Positions 2,366-10,730 of a stretch of 64,000 bases of DNA are shown here, piece by piece. Numbering within the stretch: position 1 is the first letter of the stretch; every line of letters begins with the position of its first letter. Location: assembly GCF_024298765.1 (NCBI RefSeq), contig NZ_CP101210.1; one strand, 5' to 3'. This DNA is from Escherichia coli (GTDB taxonomy: Bacteria; Pseudomonadota; Gammaproteobacteria; Enterobacterales; Enterobacteriaceae). The notes under the pieces are model-generated. The model was not told where the DNA came from. It searched no databases and saw nothing but the letters and a program-made list of their open reading frames with translations. Both the position numbers and the translations under genes were made by a program.

Positions 2366-2899
2366 ATGAACGCAAAAATCAGATACGGCCTGTCGGCTGC
2401 CGTTCTGGCACTGATTGCCGTCGGTGCGCCCGCGCCTGATATTCTCGACCAGTTTCTGGATGAAAAAGAAGGTAACCACACAACGGCATACCGCGATGGT
2501 TCCGGCATCTGGACCATCTGTCGGGGTGCCACGATGGTGGATGGAAAACCCGTTTTTCCCGGTATGAAACTGTCGAAGGAAAAATGCGACCAGGTCAACG
2601 CCATTGAGCGTGATAAGGCGCTGGCATGGGTGGAGCGCAATATTAAAGTACCACTGACCGAACCACAAAAAGCGGGTATCGCGTCATTTTGTCCCTATAA
2701 CATTGGCCCCGGTAAGTGTTTTCCATCGACGTTTTATAAGCGGCTGAATGCTGGTGATCGTAAGGGCGCATGCGAGGCGATTCGCTGGTGGATAAAAGAT
2801 GGTGGGCGCGATTGCCGCATACGTTCAAATAACTGCTATGGACAGGTTATTCGTCGTGACCAAGAAAGCGCATTAGCCTGTTGGGGAATAGATCAGTGA
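2366..2899 (+). CDS. SAR endolysin (T4-lysozyme-like muramidase with N-terminal signal-anchor-release domain)
   Basis: N-terminal hydrophobic Gly/Ala-rich segment [16 protein letters not shown]; catalytic E-x8-D-x5-T motif [16 protein letters not shown]. Confidence 0.9.
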
Positions 2900-3363
2900 G
2901 CAGAGTCGCCGCGATTATTTATGCTCTGGTTATCTGCATCATCGTCTGCCTGTCGTGGGCGGTCAATCATTACCGTGATAACGCCATCACCTACAAAGAA
3001 CAGCGTGATAAAAAAGTCAGTGAGCTGAAGCAGCTGACCGCCACCATCGCTGACATGCAGCAGCGTCAGCGTGATGTTGCTGCGCTCGATGCAAAGTACT
3101 CGAGAGAATTAGCCAATGCGAAAGCTGAAAATGAAACTCTGCGCGCTGATGTTGCCGCTGGTCGTAAGCGCCTGCGGGTCAATGCCAGTTGCTCCGCAGC
3201 CGTGCGTGAAGCCACCGGACCCACCAGCGTGGATAATGCAACCAGCCCCAGACTGGCAGACACCGCTGAACGGGATTATTTCACCCTCAGAGAACGGTTG
3301 ATGACGATGCAGAAGCAACTGGAAGGGGCACAGCTATACATTCGTGAGCAATGTCTCAGATAA
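2896..3363 (+). CDS. Spanin, inner-membrane subunit Rz (GTG start assumed)
   Basis: Strong similarity to lambda Rz as recalled; N-terminal TM helix then coiled coil. Confidence 0.85.
3116..3301 (+). CDS. Spanin, outer-membrane lipoprotein subunit Rz1 (embedded in Rz, +1 frame)
   Basis: Lipobox LVVSAC, proline-rich body, similar to lambda Rz1. Confidence 0.85.
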
Positions 3364-3790: not shown

Positions 3791-4330
3791 TTAGAAACTG
3801 CGTGGAGCTGTGGAAAGAATGGATGCCAGTTCTTCCTTCGATAAATCCCAGCTTCGATTTACAGCGTCAATTTTCTTAAACTCATCAAGCATTGCGTTAT
3901 AGAGATGTTCTGTACGTGAATGAGTATTGGCAATGGGCTGTTTCTGTTCGGGGAAGCGATCAATTTTCTGATATGCCTCAATGATACTGAAGTAATCGCA
4001 TTCATTATTACCGTCGAAACCTGGGAGCTGAATTGCCCCATCATGTATTTTTAGATGATGGTCACGGACTAATTCTTTTTGCTCGTCATCACTAAGTTTC
4101 CTGAAAGCATTGGAAAGTCCGCGATACATATTCAAGACAGCAGTAACAAAATCACGATCTTCTTTACTTGGTTCGTCAACATCCAAATGTGAATATTCGG
4201 CCTTGATAACCCAATCATTACCAGATGACACAGCATATTTAACAAGCTGTGGATCAATATCAGTTTCGATACCTAGGTGGATGGCAATGTCACATAACAA
4301 AATGGTATTGATTTTATCTTTAATATCCAT
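3791..4330 (-). CDS. Accessory (moron) protein, 179 aa, resembling YfbU/UPF0304 family; reverse strand at the lambda bor position
   Basis: Own RBS AGAGGG and promoter-like upstream region; motif pattern MY..L, GFD, C-terminal region reminiscent of YfbU (from memory, unverified). Confidence 0.5.
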   Translation of the reverse strand: MDIKDKINTILLCDIAIHLGIETDIDPQLVKYAVSSGNDWVIKAEYSHLDVDEPSKEDRDFVTAVLNMYRGLSNAFRKLSDDEQKELVRDHHLKIHDGAIQLPGFDGNNECDYFSIIEAYQKIDRFPEQKQPIANTHSRTEHLYNAMLDEFKKIDAVNRSWDLSKEELASILSTAPRSF

Positions 4331-4468
4331 GAGTTAACCCTCTGAAGTAAAAAGTAATATCTACACCCGTTGGCTCATGAAGTCTATTGATCTGTCTCAT
4401 ATCAGCAGCAAATCTATTCCATGGAGATACTCAATGCAGGTCACCTTTGATTTATATAAGGGCGAAAC

Positions 4469-4819
4469 ATGCCAGCACTAATCCCACGCGCCTGCCGTAA
4501 GCGTGGATGTGCAGGTACAACCACAGACAGTTCTGGTTACTGCGATAAACATCGTGGCGAAGGATGGGTACAGCATCAACGCGGACTGAGCCGCCACCAG
4601 CGTGGCTATGGCTCGAAATGGGATGCCATACGTGCGCGCATACTGAAGCGTGATAATCATCTGTGTCAGAACTGCCTGCGCAATGGGAGAGCCGTTGAAG
4701 CCAGAACTGTGGACCACATCATTCCGAAAGCTCATGGTGGCACGGATGCAGACAGTAACCTGCAGAGTCTGTGCTGGCCCTGTCATAAAGCAAAAACAGC
4801 GCGCGAACGCATCAATTGA
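4469..4819 (+). CDS. HNH endonuclease (terminase-associated)
   Basis: Cys-rich N-terminus and H-N-H signature DHIIPKAHGGTD...N...LCWPCH. Confidence 0.85.
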   Translation: MPALIPRACRKRGCAGTTTDSSGYCDKHRGEGWVQHQRGLSRHQRGYGSKWDAIRARILKRDNHLCQNCLRNGRAVEARTVDHIIPKAHGGTDADSNLQSLCWPCHKAKTARERIN

Positions 4820-4967
4820 TAACAGCTCCCATCTGCAGGGGAGGGGCGGGTCAAATCTCTGCAACCCTGGCTGTTCAGTACCGCCGCCTGACCCTTCCTC
4901 ACATCGCCGCAGGTTCGAAAACTTTTTTTTGGAAATGTGAACAAACGATTGATAGGTAAGACCGATT

Positions 4968-5450
4968 ATGTCAGGACCTCCGAAAACCCCGCCACGCCTG
5001 CATTTGATACGAGGCAACCCCTCAAAGCGCCCCGTTAAAGACCACAAAAAAACCGCTAAAAAGGATGAAAAAGGTCTTCCTAAAATTCCGCAGCATTTAG
5101 GGGCTCAGGGGAAGTACTGGTTCAGGCGAATGGCGGAAGAGCTGAATGCGGAAGGGATCATTTCTCAGCTTGATGCGCGTGCGCTCGAGTTGCTGGTGGA
5201 AGCCTACACCGAATATCGGCATCACTGCGAAACACTCGATGTTGAGGGGTATACCTACCGCACGGAAACGCAGAGCGGTGATGTACTGATTAAGGCGCAC
5301 CCCGCGGCGGCAATGAAAGCGGATGCCTGGAAGCGGATCCGGGCAATGCTTGCAGAGTTTGGTATGTCACCGGCAAGCCGGGCTAAAGTAAATATCGCCG
5401 GACCGGATGATGTTGATCCGCTGGCGGAGCTTTTAAAAGCGAGAGACTGA
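4968..5450 (+). CDS. Terminase small subunit (P27 family-like)
   Basis: Position upstream of and overlapping TerL start; typical basic N-terminus. Confidence 0.8.
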   Translation: MSGPPKTPPRLHLIRGNPSKRPVKDHKKTAKKDEKGLPKIPQHLGAQGKYWFRRMAEELNAEGIISQLDARALELLVEAYTEYRHHCETLDVEGYTYRTETQSGDVLIKAHPAAAMKADAWKRIRAMLAEFGMSPASRAKVNIAGPDDVDPLAELLKARD

Positions 5451-7207
5451 TGGCAAAAGTGGCTGACGGGATCCGCTACGCCGAACGTGTTGTTGCAGGA
5501 GAAATTGTTGCTGGCGAATTTGTCCGCCTGGCCTGCCAGCGTTTTCTTGATGATCTGAAGTACGGCGAAGAGCGGGGGATTTATTTCAGTGAACCCCGTG
5601 CGCAGCACATCCTGAATTTCTACAAATTTGTGCCTCATGTAAAAGGGGCGCTGGCAGGCCAGCCCATTGAGTTGATGGACTGGCATGTATTTATCCTCAT
5701 TAATATTTTTGGTTTTGTCATTCCGCTGGTCAATGAAGAGACCGGGGAAGTTGTCATGCGCAGCGATGGCAGCGGACGTCCGGTGATGGTGCGCCGGTTC
5801 CGGACGGCGTACAACGAAGTCGCCCGTAAAAACGCAAAATCAACTCTGTCATCGGGTATCGGCCTGTATATGACGGGGGCAGATGGTGAAGGCGGAGCTG
5901 AGGTGTATTCAGCCGCAACCACGCGTGACCAGGCCAGAATCGTGTTTGAAGACGCCAAAAATATGGTCAGAAAAGCCCGGTCGACACTCGGGCGGTTGTT
6001 TGATTTCAACAAGCTGGCGATTTACCAGGAGCAGAGCGCATCAAAATTTGAACCGCTTTCTTCGGATGCAAACAACCTAGATGGTCTGAACATCCACTGC
6101 GCCATTATTGATGAGCTGCATGCACATAAAACCCGTGACGTGTGGGACGTTCTGGAAACGGCAACCGGTGCCCGTCTGCAGTCCCTTTTATTTGGTATCA
6201 CCACGGCAGGGTTTAACAAGGAAGGGATTTGTTACGAGCAGCGTGATTACGCCATCAAGGTATTGCGTGGCTATAACAGCGACGTGGAGGGCGCGGTAAA
6301 AGACGACTCCTACTTTGCGATTATTTACACCCTCGATGAGGGAGATGATCCGTTTGATGAAACGGTCTGGCAGAAAGCGAATCCCGGCCTGGGCATCTGT
6401 AAACGCTGGGATGATCTGCGTCGCCTGGCGAAAAAAGCGAAAGAACAGGTCTCTGCGCGGGTGAATTTTTTTACCAAACACATGAATGTGTGGGTAACAG
6501 CAGAGTCTGCCTGGATGGACATGATTAAGTGGGAGAAGTGCGAATACATTGCCCCACGACATGAGCTGAAAACGTATCCCATGTGGGTCGGCGTTGACCT
6601 TGCTCATAAGATTGATATCTGTGCGGCGGCAAAACTCTGGCGAACGGATAACGGGCATGTTCATGCCGATTTTAAATTCTGGCTTCCGGAAGGACGGCTG
6701 GAACGATGCTCGCGGCAGCAGGCAGAACTTTACCGGAAGTGGGCGGAGATGGATAAGCTGATTCTGACGGATGGTGATGTTATCGATCATGCTCAGATAA
6801 AAAGTGACTTACTGGAATGGATTGGTGGTGAAAACCTCAGGGAACTGGGATTTGACCCGTGGAGCGCGATGCAGTTCAGCCTGGCACTGGCTGAAGAAGG
6901 GATACCGCTGGTGGAGGTTCCGCAGACGGTTCGCAATCTGTCAGAGGCCATGAAGGAAACGGAATCACTGGTCTATGCCGGGCGTTTCCATCACAGCAAT
7001 CATCCGGTCATGAACTGGATGATGTCTAACGTTACGGTAAAACCGGACAAAAACGACAATATCTTCCCGAATAAATCCACGCTGGAAGCCAAAATCGACG
7101 GCCCTGTTGCGATGTTTACAGCAATGAGCCGGATGCTGGTCAATGGTGGTGAACCGGAGCTGGATCTGTCTGAACATCTGGTCAGCGTGGGCATCCGCTC
7201 GCTTTAA
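5450..7207 (+). CDS. Terminase large subunit
   Basis: 585 aa, ATPase plus nuclease architecture, positional. Confidence 0.9.
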
Positions 7208-7218
7208 CCGAGGTCATT

Positions 7219-7401
7219 ATGTTTCTGATAATTCTCGCGCCACTGGTGGGCGTGCTGGGTGCGCTTTTGCTGGCGTATGGTGCCTGGCTGATTTATCCCC
7301 CGGCGGGTTTTGTTGTTGCCGGGGTGCTGTGCCTGTTCTGGTCGTGGCTGGTGGCGCGATATCTCGACCGTACACAGCCGTCTGTCGGCGGAGGTAAATA
7401 G
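7219..7401 (+). CDS. Small hydrophobic protein (60 aa, two predicted TM helices)
   Basis: ATG with GAGG RBS; between TerL and portal. Confidence 0.45.
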
Positions 7402-8642
7402 TGTTCTTTTCGGGATTATTTCAACGAAAAAGTGACGCGCCGGTGACCACGCCAGCAGAGCTGGCGGATGCCATCGGGTTGTCTTACGACACCTATACCG
7501 GAAAGCAGATCAGCAGTCAGCGGGCCATGCGACTGACGGCGGTTTTTTCCTGCGTCAGAGTGCTGGCAGAGTCGGTCGGGATGTTGCCCTGCAATCTGTA
7601 TCACCTGAACGGCAGCCTGAAACAGAGGGCCACCGGCGAACGTCTGCATAAGCTGATCTCCACGCATCCCAATGGCTATATGACGCCGCAGGAGTTCTGG
7701 GAGCTGGTGGTCACCTGTCTGTGCCTGAGGGGAAACTTTTACGCCTACAAAGTGAAAGCATTTGGCGAAGTGGCTGAACTGCTGCCCGTCGATCCCGGTT
7801 GTGTGGTACCGAAGCTTAACAGTCGCTGGGAGCCGGTCTATCAGGTCACATTCCCGGACGGTTCCACGGATGTACTGAGCCAGGAAGATATCTGGCATGT
7901 GCGCACGCTGACGCTGGACGGTCTGGTGGGACTGAATCCCATCGCCTATGCCCGCGAGGCAATATCGCTGGCAGCAGCGACCGAAGAGCACGGGGCCAGA
8001 CTGTTCAGCAATGGTGCGGTGACGTCCGGTGTGTTGCGTACAGAACAGACGCTGTCGGATCAGGCTTATGAGCGCCTGAAGAAAGATTTTGAGGAGCGTC
8101 ACACCGGGCTTGGCAATGCTCACCGCCCGATGATCCTTGAGATGGGGCTGGACTGGAAGTCGATGGCGCTGAACGCCGAGGACAGCCAGTTCCTGGAAAC
8201 CCGCAAGTTTCAGCTTGAAGAAATCTGTCGTCTGTTCCGGGTGCCGTTGCACATGGTGCAGAACACCGATCGCGCCACCTTCAACAATATCGAAGAGCTG
8301 GGGCTGGGATTTATCAACTATTCACTGGTGCCGTATCTGACCCGCATCGAACAGCGGATCAACACCGGACTGGTACGAAAAAGTAAGCAGGGCGTTTATT
8401 ACGCCAAATTTAACGCCGGGGCGTTACTGCGCGGGGATATGAAGTCCCGTTTTGAAGCCTACGCCACCGGGATCAACTGGGGAATTTACTCTCCCAATGA
8501 CTGCCGCGACCTGGAAGATATGAATCCGCGTCCCGGTGGTGATGTCTATCTCACACCGATGAACATGACCACGAAACCCTCCGATGGCAGTAAAGCCGGT
8601 AAGCAGAAGGATAACGCCAATGCAGACGAAACAACGTCTTGA
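7401..8642 (+). CDS. Portal protein (HK97 family), GTG start
   Basis: 413 aa; GGAGGT RBS; position and size. Confidence 0.85.
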   Translation: MFFSGLFQRKSDAPVTTPAELADAIGLSYDTYTGKQISSQRAMRLTAVFSCVRVLAESVGMLPCNLYHLNGSLKQRATGERLHKLISTHPNGYMTPQEFWELVVTCLCLRGNFYAYKVKAFGEVAELLPVDPGCVVPKLNSRWEPVYQVTFPDGSTDVLSQEDIWHVRTLTLDGLVGLNPIAYAREAISLAAATEEHGARLFSNGAVTSGVLRTEQTLSDQAYERLKKDFEERHTGLGNAHRPMILEMGLDWKSMALNAEDSQFLETRKFQLEEICRLFRVPLHMVQNTDRATFNNIEELGLGFINYSLVPYLTRIEQRINTGLVRKSKQGVYYAKFNAGALLRGDMKSRFEAYATGINWGIYSPNDCRDLEDMNPRPGGDVYLTPMNMTTKPSDGSKAGKQKDNANADETTS

Positions 8643-9270
8643 TGTACCGCTGAGTCTGAAATCTGTCAGTGACTCCGGTGAGTTTGAAGGGTATGGCTCC
8701 GTCTTTGGTGTAAAGGACAGCCACGATGATGTGGTGATGTCCGGGGCATTTGCTGCTTCCCTGCGGGCGTGGAGTGACAGAAAAGCGTTACCTGCGCTGC
8801 TCTGGCAGCACCGCATGGATGAACCCATCGGTGTTTACACCGAAATGAAGGAAGACGATGTCGGGCTTTACGTCAGGGGACGGTTGCTTATTGATGATGA
8901 TCCCCTCGCAAAACGCGCACATGCACACATGAAGGCCGGTTCGTTAACCGGCCTTTCTATTGGGTACGTCCTGAAAGACTGGGAATACGACCGGAGCAAA
9001 GAAGCCTTTCTGCTGAAAGAAATCGACCTCTGGGAAGTCAGCCTGGTGACGTTCCCGTCTAACGACGAGGCGCGGATCAGCGACGTCAAGAACGCACTGG
9101 CCCGCGGGGAAATCCCCGAACAGAAAAAAATCGAAAGAGTCCTGCGTGATGTCGGACTCTCCCGTACCCAGGCCAAAGCATTCATGGCCGGGGGCTATGG
9201 CGCACTGTCCCTGCGCGACGCTGAGGATGTGGGCTCTGCACTGAATGCACTGAAAAATCTAAACTTCTAA
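8620..9270 (+). CDS. Prohead protease (HK97 family; alternative upstream start at 8584)
   Basis: Positional between portal and capsid; start ambiguous. Confidence 0.8.
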   Translation: MQTKQRLDVPLSLKSVSDSGEFEGYGSVFGVKDSHDDVVMSGAFAASLRAWSDRKALPALLWQHRMDEPIGVYTEMKEDDVGLYVRGRLLIDDDPLAKRAHAHMKAGSLTGLSIGYVLKDWEYDRSKEAFLLKEIDLWEVSLVTFPSNDEARISDVKNALARGEIPEQKKIERVLRDVGLSRTQAKAFMAGGYGALSLRDAEDVGSALNALKNLNF

Positions 9271-9284
9271 TCAGGAGAAATACG

Positions 9285-10490
9285 ATGGCGGTTGATATTA
9301 AAGATGTCGAACAGGTCGCGCAGGAGCTGCAGCAGAAGTTTGACGACTTCAAAGCAAAGAACGACAAGCGCGTGGATGCGATTGAGCAGGAAAAAGGCAA
9401 ACTTGCCGGGCAGGTGGAAACCCTGAACGGGAAACTCAGCGAGCTGGAAAACCTCAAAAGCGATCTTGAAAAAGAGCTGCTTGAGCTGAAACGTCCGGCA
9501 GGTGGTGCGCAAAATAAACTGGCCACCGAGCATAAAGAAGCGTTTGTGGGCTTCCTGCGTAAAGGCCGTGAAGATGGTCTGCGCGATCTGGAGCGCAAGG
9601 CATTACAGGTGGGCACCGATGAAGACGGCGGCTATGCCGTGCCGGAAGCACTGGATCGCAACATTCTCACCCTGCTGAAAGATGAAGTGGTGATGCGCCA
9701 GGAAGCCACGGTGATCAGCGTTGGTGGTTCCGACTACAAAAAACTGGTGAATCTGGGCGGCACGGCTTCCGGATGGGTTGGCGAGACTGACGCGCGCTCC
9801 CAGACTGCCACCTCAAAACTGGGCCTGATTGAACCTTTCATGGGGGAAATCTACGGTAACCCGCAGGCCACCCAGAAAATGCTGGATGATGCCTTTTTCA
9901 ACGTGGAAGCATGGATCAACAGCGAGCTGGCAACCGAATTTGCCGAACAGGAAGAAATTGCCTTTACCACCGGCGATGGTACCAAGAAGCCGAAAGGGTT
10001 CCTGGCGTATGAGTCCACGGATGAAACAGACAAGGTCCGGGCGTTCGGCAAACTTCAGCATATTGTATCCGGCGAAGCGACGGCGGTGACCGCAGATGCC
10101 ATTATCAAACTGATTTACACGCTGCGTAAGGCACACCGCACTGGCGCGAAGTTCATGATGAACAACAACAGTCTGTTTGCCATCCGTCTGCTGAAAGACA
10201 GTGAGGGTAACTATCTGTGGCGTCCGGGGCTGGAGCTGGGGCAGCCGTCCTCTCTGGCGGGTTACGGTATCGCTGAAAACGAACAGATGCCGGATATTGC
10301 CGCTGATGCGAAAGCCATTGCATTTGGTAACTTCAAACGGGGTTACACCATCGTTGACCGTATCGGTACCCGCATTCTGCGTGACCCGTACACCAATAAA
10401 CCGTTTGTCGGTTTTTATACCACCAAGCGCACCGGCGGCATGCTGGTCGATTCGCAGGCCATCAAACTGCTGAAGATTGCAGCGGCGTAA
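9285..10490 (+). CDS. Major capsid protein (HK97 fold) with N-terminal coiled-coil delta domain
   Basis: 401 aa; N-terminal ~100 aa coiled coil then capsid domain. Confidence 0.9.
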   Translation: MAVDIKDVEQVAQELQQKFDDFKAKNDKRVDAIEQEKGKLAGQVETLNGKLSELENLKSDLEKELLELKRPAGGAQNKLATEHKEAFVGFLRKGREDGLRDLERKALQVGTDEDGGYAVPEALDRNILTLLKDEVVMRQEATVISVGGSDYKKLVNLGGTASGWVGETDARSQTATSKLGLIEPFMGEIYGNPQATQKMLDDAFFNVEAWINSELATEFAEQEEIAFTTGDGTKKPKGFLAYESTDETDKVRAFGKLQHIVSGEATAVTADAIIKLIYTLRKAHRTGAKFMMNNNSLFAIRLLKDSEGNYLWRPGLELGQPSSLAGYGIAENEQMPDIAADAKAIAFGNFKRGYTIVDRIGTRILRDPYTNKPFVGFYTTKRTGGMLVDSQAIKLLKIAAA

Positions 10491-10497
10491 TCATTCA

Positions 10498-10526
10498 GGG
10501 GGCGCAGAAGTGCGCCCCCTGTTCTG
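10498..10526 (+). terminator. GC-rich hairpin downstream of capsid gene (terminator/attenuator-like)
   Basis: GGGGGCGCA-GAAG-TGCGCCCCC perfect 9-bp stem; weak U tract. Confidence 0.4.
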
Positions 10527-10541
10527 ACAGGTGAAAGAATC

Positions 10542-10730
10542 ATGATCCTGAAACAAGATCTGAAATGGTCACCGGACGGTATGCGTGTTGAGATTATTCG
10601 GGCCGGTGAGTATGAAGATAAAGAATTACCCGAACGGGTACGCGAAATTGCCACTGCAGCTGGGATTGTCTCTGATAAGAGAACACCTGTTGCGCGGGGG
10701 GCTGATAAGTCTAAAAAACAGCATTCATAG
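10542..10730 (+). CDS. Hypothetical small protein (62 aa)
   Basis: ORF between capsid and connector genes. Confidence 0.4.
   Translation: MILKQDLKWSPDGMRVEIIRAGEYEDKELPERVREIATAAGIVSDKRTPVARGADKSKKQHS

Follow-up and report, generated by a model that had tools for sequence, protein, structure and literature searches.

The DNA considered here is a 64,000-nucleotide (nt) window of an Escherichia coli genome (GCF_024298765.1, contig NZ_CP101210.1), to which all coordinates refer unless a locus is named, and the subject is a 60-codon open reading frame (ORF) that lies in an HK97-type phage head module between the genes for the large terminase subunit (TerL) and the portal protein. Judged by sequence identity, the gene is an orthologue of ymfR of the E. 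coli K-12 prophage e14 and a member of an already catalogued sequence family, and is thus not new as an object. Gene order and sequence comparison indicate that YmfR is a fixed part of the head-gene block rather than a stray add-on gene, save in one unclassified contig pair (L230/L231) among the related phages examined, and it is very probably a portal-linked component of the head module. The features of the gene and its product are as follows.

7219-7401, plus strand: YmfR-family ORF; ATG at 7219, 60 codons and a TAG at 7399-7401; the protein is RefSeq WP_000478567.1
7210-7213, plus strand: Shine-Dalgarno sequence GAGG of the small ORF, 5 bases 5′ of the ATG and 3 bases past the TerL stop (7205-7207)
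7222-7293, plus strand: helix 1 (residues 2-25), with small residues G11, G14 and G21 and the invariant W23; placed by hydropathy, AlphaFold2 (AF2) and alignment columns
7294-7308, plus strand: tight turn YPPAG (residues 26-30), centre of the best-conserved family motif, probably on the periplasmic face
7309-7356, plus strand: hydrophobic core of helix 2 (residues 31-46); G35, C38, L39, W41 and S42 are invariant in the 20-sequence alignment A1
7357-7398, plus strand: charged, poorly conserved C-terminal tail, probably on the cytoplasmic side; ratio of nonsynonymous to synonymous substitution rates (dN/dS) 0.73; predicted local distance difference test score (pLDDT) about 60
7390-7394, plus strand: portal Shine-Dalgarno sequence GGAGG, inside codons Gly58-Gly59 of the small ORF
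7399-7403, plus strand: TAGTG junction, at which the small-ORF stop and the portal GTG start share one base, G7401

Linkage of ymfR to the Portal Gene

The stop codon of the small ORF overlaps the portal start, and the ribosome-binding site of the portal gene lies within the last codons of the small ORF; therefore, portal translation is coupled to the small ORF, and the two genes are inherited as one block. Conservation in related prophages, which an earlier note on this stretch had proposed as a check, was examined in 80 IMG/VR loci chosen by portal similarity (portal 72-100% identical). A match to the YmfR profile lies directly 5′ of the portal gene in all 80, and the reading frame, whose disruption in near-identical prophages the note had named as a ground for dismissing the gene, is intact in 79 of them and frameshifted in L047. 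To avoid circularity, a second sample was drawn from IMG/VR and from GTDB genomes solely by a degenerate DNA motif inside the hairpin. An ORF matching the portal profile follows immediately 3′ of the small ORF in 78 of the 78 motif-chosen IMG/VR loci with room downstream, and the portal gene is directly downstream in all 19 motif-chosen GTDB contigs, which come from Bradyrhizobium, Reyranella, Azospirillum, Sulfitobacter, Rhizobium, Sphingopyxis, Mangrovibacter, Lysobacterales and others. The one-base overlap of stop and start is present in 79 of 80 close loci, and among 58 non-redundant remote junctions 49 have a one-base overlap (TGATG/TAATG) and four a four-base overlap (ATGA/GTGA), that is, 53 of 58 overlap. 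Programmed frameshifting into the portal frame was considered and dropped, as inspection of the junctions found no conserved slippery sequence.

Recombination joints indicate that the small gene belongs with the portal rather than with the terminase. E. coli matches of the e14/SfV type start at 7188-7189 and cover ymfR and the portal gene, the TerL gene being unrelated, and other E. coli matches comprise TerL only and end at 7146-7149. When the 80 portal-chosen loci were scored against the window, 43 had an unrelated TerL 3′ end together with ymfR at least 90% and portal at least 94% identical, and six had TerL at least 94% identical but ymfR only 83-87% and portal 76-77% identical. The joint falls between TerL and ymfR in 49 of the 51 discordant loci and between ymfR and portal in the other two; these loci are not independent events and represent at least two distinct kinds of joint. 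In the prophage L003, a similar TerL is accompanied by a portal with 28% identity, and the slot between them holds a divergent 53-residue hairpin (phrog_7105, E = 1.9e-19; phrog_502 weakly, E = 1.7e-6). A divergent hairpin thus stands beside a divergent portal, so that the hairpin type follows the portal type. Two remote members (profile E about 1e-7 to 1e-8) are found in arrays of the order HNH, small terminase, TerL, small ORF, portal, protease and capsid. TerL usually adjoins the hairpin gene, and in about 15 loci a gap of 400-1300 nt between them holds extra, mostly opposite-strand ORFs. This boundary looks like a hot spot for insertion; no inserted gene was found between hairpin and portal among the loci examined, and a tandem-duplicated hairpin (P0264) is still coupled to its portal.

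Such gaps were met in some alphaproteobacterial relatives (L131, L118, L133, L143, L173 and L120 from IMG/VR; L200, L203 and L209 from genomes). Read by eye without a Pfam check, their ORFs resemble a ParB-like protein, an M50 membrane protease, a thioesterase of the hot-dog type and a methyltransferase dependent on S-adenosylmethionine.

Family Membership and Anatomy of the Protein

The observation of a hydrophobic gene of 60 codons is confirmed. The two-helix membrane protein that the earlier note had placed between TerL and portal corresponds to an exact ORF, and the GAGG ribosome-binding site that it reported is present five bases ahead of the ATG. The window protein is identical to WP_000478567.1, labelled "hypothetical protein" in E. 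coli C8. It matches phrog_502 ("membrane protein") with E = 1.6e-27, residues 1-55 aligning with profile positions 3-57 of 58, and shares 55 of 60 residues (92%) with e14 YmfR (WP_000605606), the substitutions being F2I, L3M, I4L, V36A and P54S. A megablast search found the region 6900-7700 in 1946 of 5426 complete E. coli genomes, the gene being ymfR of the cryptic prophage e14 in K-12-like strains. A 20-member profile searched against 1.84 billion representative proteins retrieved 478 clusters (50% identity) at E <= 0.001; the best 150 of these 478 are nearly all 45-80 residues long and have the common core [YF]-G-A-W-L-[IV]-Y-x-P-A-G-[FY]-I-[VT]-x-G. Among cultured phages, the gene occurs in at least phiP27, ST64B, SfI, SfII, SfIV, phi467, phiKO2 (Gp3), PY54 and Marinobacter phage AS1. 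Annotated homologues from cultured phages are 45-95% identical, and those of phiP27, SfII ("putative integral membrane protein"), phiKO2 (Gp3) and AS1 (Gp3) agree with the window protein in family, position and overlap of the stop with the portal start. The hairpin ORF of PY54 (L005:2296-2493) is unannotated in its record, and several phage records name the family member "membrane protein". Scans of the ORF with Pfam, NCBIfam and PADLOC assigned it to no family and gave only sub-threshold matches to generic two-helix families, e.g., DUF1206 and DUF2244. A profile search of PDB sequences returned no solved relative below E = 1, and Foldseek comparison of the AF2 hairpin with viral models returned only uncharacterised small proteins, none at E <= 0.001, a two-helix model being too simple for fold matching.

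The e14 protein has the same length, the same slot between TerL and portal and a TAG/GTG overlap; it differs in that both of its neighbours are truncated pseudogenes, whereas the module of the window is intact. In the e14 of a K-12-like strain (L002:2882-4619), ymfR stands intact between the truncated TerL and portal pseudogenes, which may reflect either chance, the gene being a small target, or selection in the host. Under an SOS-inducing antibiotic, e14 ymfR mRNA rises 2^4.5-fold alongside other e14 genes (PMC10012262), which fits expression in the lytic programme.

The small protein is strongly hydrophobic, with a grand average of hydropathy (GRAVY) of +1.26. Residues 2-25 and 31-46 are uncharged, with GRAVY values of about 2.3-2.4 each; YPPAG joins the two segments and the charged tail follows them. 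The AF2 model, built on a 90-sequence alignment, is a hairpin composed of a helix at residues 2-25, a three-residue turn, a helix at residues 29-52 and a floppy end (mean pLDDT 76.8). The turn motif G-x-W-x2-Y-x-P-A-G-[FY] between two hydrophobic helices is present in the window protein (alignments A1/A3/A4), A1 comprising 20 sequences from enterobacterial members together with phiKO2, PY54 and Marinobacter AS1. A Pro-Pro translational stall was rejected as a conserved feature of the turn, since only P-A-G is kept and remote members may have Q, E, K, R, A or H in place of the first Pro. The N-terminus ahead of helix 1 is a single residue in enterobacterial members; remote members carry a basic N-terminal extension with a conserved Asp at its end, followed by helix 1. 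According to the positive-inside rule, with basic residues on both sides, both termini are probably cytoplasmic and the YPPAG turn periplasmic. Small residues recur every 3-4 positions on both helices (G11, G14/A15 and G21/A22; G30, A34/G35, C38, S42 and A46), a pattern expected for tight helix packing within the hairpin and perhaps between hairpins. The C-terminal GG(E/D/K) is conserved in enterobacterial members because the portal Shine-Dalgarno sequence is read in frame.

Comparison of 49 distinct homologous DNA sequences gave codon-position entropies of 0.58/0.43/0.98 and a median Nei-Gojobori dN/dS of 0.27 over the whole ORF, with 0.18 in residues 2-46 and 0.73 in the tail, implying that the membrane core is under purifying selection. 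Because third codon positions of the YmfR frame are the most variable, the ORFs of overlapping frames are by-products: an 84-residue ORF (7143-7397, plus strand) was rejected as a gene on this ground, and a 52-residue antisense ORF (7217-7375, minus strand) was rejected on the same ground and because its frame is closed in 19 of the 49 variants. Selection at the protein level bears on the idea that the ORF is only a coupling leader, which delivers ribosomes to the portal start and sets portal dosage while its peptide has no function. The conserved stop/start overlap and the portal Shine-Dalgarno sequence within the ORF would suit such a leader, but the dN/dS of the core, the specific motif kept between Alpha- and Gammaproteobacteria, and HK97, which couples its portal to TerL without a leader, make it extremely improbable.

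Moron-like Features and Annotation Labels

The earlier note had called a membrane peptide in a head module atypical and had suggested a small moron, for example one with a superinfection-exclusion function. The first view gives way to the finding of a catalogued family (ymfR, phrog_502) in many phages and of a comparable ORF in about half of the distant HK97-type portal modules. As to the second, a classical moron would be acquired and transcribed independently, as in the case of a prophage-expressed superinfection-exclusion peptide such as HK97 gp15. YmfR is small, membrane-embedded and absent from HK97 itself, the PHROGs category of the family is "moron, auxiliary metabolic gene and host takeover", and ymfR is intact in cryptic e14 though both neighbours are truncated. 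The signatures expected of a moron are nevertheless missing at the locus. A consensus scan, the only promoter test applied, found three promoter-like sites in 4300-10600 against 4.4 +/- 1.7 in shuffled sequence, and the sole plus-strand site (7204-7232) spans the start codon of ymfR; no plus-strand terminator-like site was found past 7401. The GC content of the gene (0.59) resembles that of portal (0.56; TerL 0.52), its GC content at third codon positions (0.63) falls between those of TerL (0.57) and portal (0.68), and there is no intergenic spacer on either side. Nor is there presence/absence polymorphism, the gene being found in 80 of 80 close relatives with its stop overlapping the portal start, and absent only from distant modules such as that of HK97. 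In addition, e14 ymfR rises with the rest of the prophage under SOS-inducing stress and not constitutively alone (PMC10012262). The controls look different, HK97 gp15 having a GC content of 0.33, spacers and its own terminator, and a YfbU-like gene in the window a GC content of 0.39. A moron in the classical sense is therefore highly unlikely, and the PHROGs category label is not supported in the loci examined.

HK97 gp15 is the textbook moron, a superinfection-exclusion protein. Like YmfR, it is a small membrane protein (62 residues) inside the morphogenesis operon of an HK97-type phage. It differs in having one N-terminal helix and a polar tail, a GC content of 0.33 against 0.51-0.56 in its flanks, a 57-nt upstream spacer and its own terminator. 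Homology between YmfR and gp15 was not found by hhalign (probability 0.15%), and no PADLOC model matched, which leaves the suggested exclusion peptide without support.

The YfbU-like gene encodes a YfbU-domain protein (PF03887, E = 6.5e-12) of 179 residues at 3791-4330 on the minus strand, with the Rz gene on one side and the HNH/terminase genes on the other. The GC content is 0.39 in this gene and about 0.53 around it, and a GNAT acetyltransferase gene occupies the same slot in the otherwise similar C8 prophage; this slot is a genuine moron-like cargo site.

The earlier note was right by position in equating the slot of the gene with that of lambda W, gpW sharing with YmfR the place between TerL and portal, a similar size (68 residues) and overlapping gene ends. 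The hairpin is unrelated to W, however: gpW is soluble, with a GRAVY of -0.49 against +1.26, and BLASTP gave no alignment between the two at E <= 100. The label "head-tail joining protein W", which several YmfR homologues bear in GenBank phage records (ON470580, ON470603, ON470584 and PQ793804; L094:3001-3183), was accordingly rejected as a positional mis-annotation. Lambda W (L093:2633-2839) ends in ...RRGPAGFYV, resembling the hairpin turn at window 7294-7317; as BLAST finds no similarity, this is taken as a five-residue coincidence.

Spread among Phages with HK97-Type Portals

A sample of distant phages with PF04860 portals revealed that about half carry a comparable hairpin ORF. A two-helix ORF lies ahead of the portal gene in Vibrio phage K324 (weak phrog_7105 and phrog_502 matches), Streptomyces phage Chymera, Mycobacterium phage Klein (annotated "membrane protein", with a four-base overlap) and Bacillus phage phiCM3 (L223, about 1020-1180; unannotated, phrog_1142). 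The Chymera and Klein ORFs showed no statistically significant homology to YmfR and have only architecture and position in common with it. As such hairpin ORFs precede portals in Gram-positive phages, their role cannot depend on the Gram-negative envelope. No hairpin gene was found ahead of the portal in HK97, Pseudomonas phage pAN, RcapNL, Xanthomonas phage NP1, Geobacillus phage E2, Streptococcus phage Javan320 and Campylobacter CJIE4-3; the HK97 portal is coupled directly to TerL, with no leader ORF, and CJIE4-3 has a MazF gene between TerL and portal. The hairpin is thus common but dispensable for an HK97-type head, and it would be an accessory factor and not a universal requirement, HK97 and others with the same portal family lacking it.

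The annotated portal start of phiCM3 (1378) seems too far downstream, since a tblastn match and a start reading MKFLIFRQLF... lie just past the hairpin ORF. In this portal family the N-terminus opens with a short motif of hydrophobic or amphipathic character, after which basic residues come (MFFSGLFQRK, MxGLFGxLAxxLRR, MGFLSSL; window 7401-7430, L096-L175). The hydrophobic motif (MFFSGLF, MxGLFGxL) was considered as a docking site for the hairpin and rejected, as it also occurs on hairpin-less portals (Geobacillus E2, RcapNL, Campylobacter CJIE4-3) and is thus a general trait of these portals.

Proposed Role in Portal Assembly

A tentative proposal is that YmfR may act together with the portal at the onset of head assembly, on the inner membrane, in loose analogy to T4 gp40. 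The gene has no expression signals of its own and is translated from the late head-gene message, in which it directly follows TerL; the hairpin would be made in step with portal subunits and inserted into the inner membrane. There it would probably self-associate via the glycine/small-residue stripes on both helices, and the membrane hairpin might help to bring portal subunits together into the ring from which head assembly begins. The fuller version, regarded as slightly more doubtful, makes the hairpin an unrecognised head-assembly factor that is produced one-for-one with the portal from the same ribosomes and oligomerises in the inner membrane via its glycine-rich helices, possibly as a ring, into a platform on which the portal dodecamer would form and the head would be started. 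T4 gp40 is a small phage protein with a function at the inner membrane during formation of the gp20 portal vertex, and it is annotated as "membrane-associated initiator of head vertex assembly". YmfR would be a functional analogue and not a relative of this initiator, for gp40 is acidic, 114 residues long and devoid of any hydrophobic helix, and its gene lies in the replication/recombination region between 41 and uvsX, not beside head genes.

Several points weigh against this proposal. The parts of YmfR able to touch a cytoplasmic portal are tiny and variable, namely a one-residue N-terminus and a tail with a dN/dS of 0.73, and the best-conserved stretch surrounds the periplasm-side turn, a pattern more in keeping with self-association, or with a partner in the membrane or periplasm, than with binding to the portal. 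The tight linkage to the portal could be due to shared expression alone. Phages HK97, pAN, RcapNL, NP1 and E2 build heads with homologous portals and no hairpin gene. Homology to T4 gp40 was not found by hhalign (probability 0.3%), and the searchable literature, which leaves out most subscription journals, holds passing mentions of the YmfR family but no functional study, structure or description of portal coupling. Lastly, a double hairpin, P0147 (L230:1500-1808, L231:1476-1784), has no recognisable portal adjacent to it and is the sole exception to portal adjacency met among the loci examined.

This four-helix member of 102 residues is flanked in both contigs by a 320-residue ORF with no Pfam or PHROG match on one side and by a 100-residue ORF and an S78 protease on the other. 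The 320-residue protein could be a very divergent portal.

The main rival is a late accessory protein directed at the host membrane, acting for instance in late superinfection exclusion, lysis timing or membrane permeability and energetics, which merely borrows the translation signals of the portal and never touches it. The most conserved residues are at the periplasm-proximal helix ends and the turn while the cytoplasmic tails drift, the PHROGs category names host takeover, and the patchy occurrence among HK97-type modules suits an accessory gene. Moreover, an ASKA ymfR clone induced with 0.1 mM isopropyl β-D-thiogalactopyranoside released D-alanine in a first-round bioassay, for which the authors suggested possible leakage or lysis from membrane-protein overproduction (PMC10299036). 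On the other hand, portal adjacency is 100% in about 177 loci, Alpha- and Gammaproteobacteria alike keep the one-base overlap, and Gram-positive phages have similar hairpin ORFs ahead of their portals. Were the gene host-directed, it should be mobile or replaceable, like the insertions at the TerL boundary, and the hairpin co-diverges with portal type and not with TerL. Furthermore, no defence or anti-defence model matched, and lysogen-type expression signals were not found. This explanation may apply, though the odds are clearly against it.

A regulator of lysis of the holin or antiholin type, with class II topology, is very unlikely. YmfR resembles class II holins and pinholins, e.g., S21, in its size (about 60-70 residues in that class), two membrane helices, charged C-terminal tail and presumed cytoplasmic ends (N-in/C-in), as well as in its glycine-rich helices. 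It differs in lying outside the lysis cassette, which the window has for itself more than 3.8 kb upstream, and in lacking homology both to the class II holin of the phage itself (hhalign probability 1.2%) and to any Pfam holin family above threshold. The gene was never beside an endolysin gene in the loci examined, and the induced ASKA clone still grew enough to be scored (PMC10299036).

A virion-associated pilot or ejection peptide, located at or near the portal and entering the inner membrane of the next host to aid DNA entry, is improbable. The gene is a head-module gene beside the portal, coupling implies that the two proteins are made in roughly equimolar amounts, a hydrophobic hairpin could enter a membrane, and virion gels easily fail to show small hydrophobic proteins. 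However, a hairpin that is hydrophobic throughout, with hardly any soluble portion, is hard to keep in a lipid-free capsid, and the genes for DNA-entry factors are normally grouped with those for tail and tape measure. The head module of the hairpin pairs with different tail types: the annotation of the near-identical C8 prophage (L001) names protein T and a tail assembly chaperone like that of lambda, and e14 carries baseplate-J and P2-like fibre genes. A substantial minority of the probability falls to explanations outside all those listed.

Genomic Neighbourhood in the Window

The head module and the lysis genes upstream of it are arranged as follows.

Lysis cassette, more than 3.8 kb upstream of the small ORF: holin homologue near 1732-1947, lysozyme, and Rz at 2881-3363
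4469-4819: HNH endonuclease (Pfam)
4968-5450: P27-family small terminase (Pfam)
5450-7207, plus strand: TerL (Pfam), the usual but separable upstream neighbour of ymfR, with a mosaic joint at about 7146-7189
7401-8642, plus strand: portal, PF04860 Phage_portal (Pfam, E = 5e-108), the invariable downstream partner
8584-9270: S78 prohead protease (Pfam)
9285-10490: HK97-type capsid protein (Pfam)

Between the capsid gene and the head-tail connector gene lies a further 62-residue ORF (10542-10730, plus strand), annotated "hypothetical protein" in C8 and without a Pfam match.

Implications

YmfR is a common and catalogued, yet strongly conserved, partner of the portal gene, and uncharacterised members of its family occur throughout the cultured phages listed above. 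Within that same searchable literature, no mention was found of any YmfR function, of the near-invariable portal coupling by a one-base overlap in Alpha- and Gammaproteobacteria, or of architecturally similar hairpins ahead of the portal in actinobacterial and Bacillus phages. Two annotation habits are corrected by the present comparison: the loci examined lend no support to the "moron" category, and "head-tail joining protein W" is a wrong label. For the question of how HK97-type heads come to have a single portal vertex, a small membrane protein synchronised with the portal is a cheap and directly testable candidate. If YmfR does form such a membrane platform for portal assembly, initiation at the membrane, for which T4 has so far been the main example, would be common to many HK97-type phages of both Gram-negative and Gram-positive hosts, and would provide an answer to how capsids without a separate scaffolding protein gain exactly one portal.

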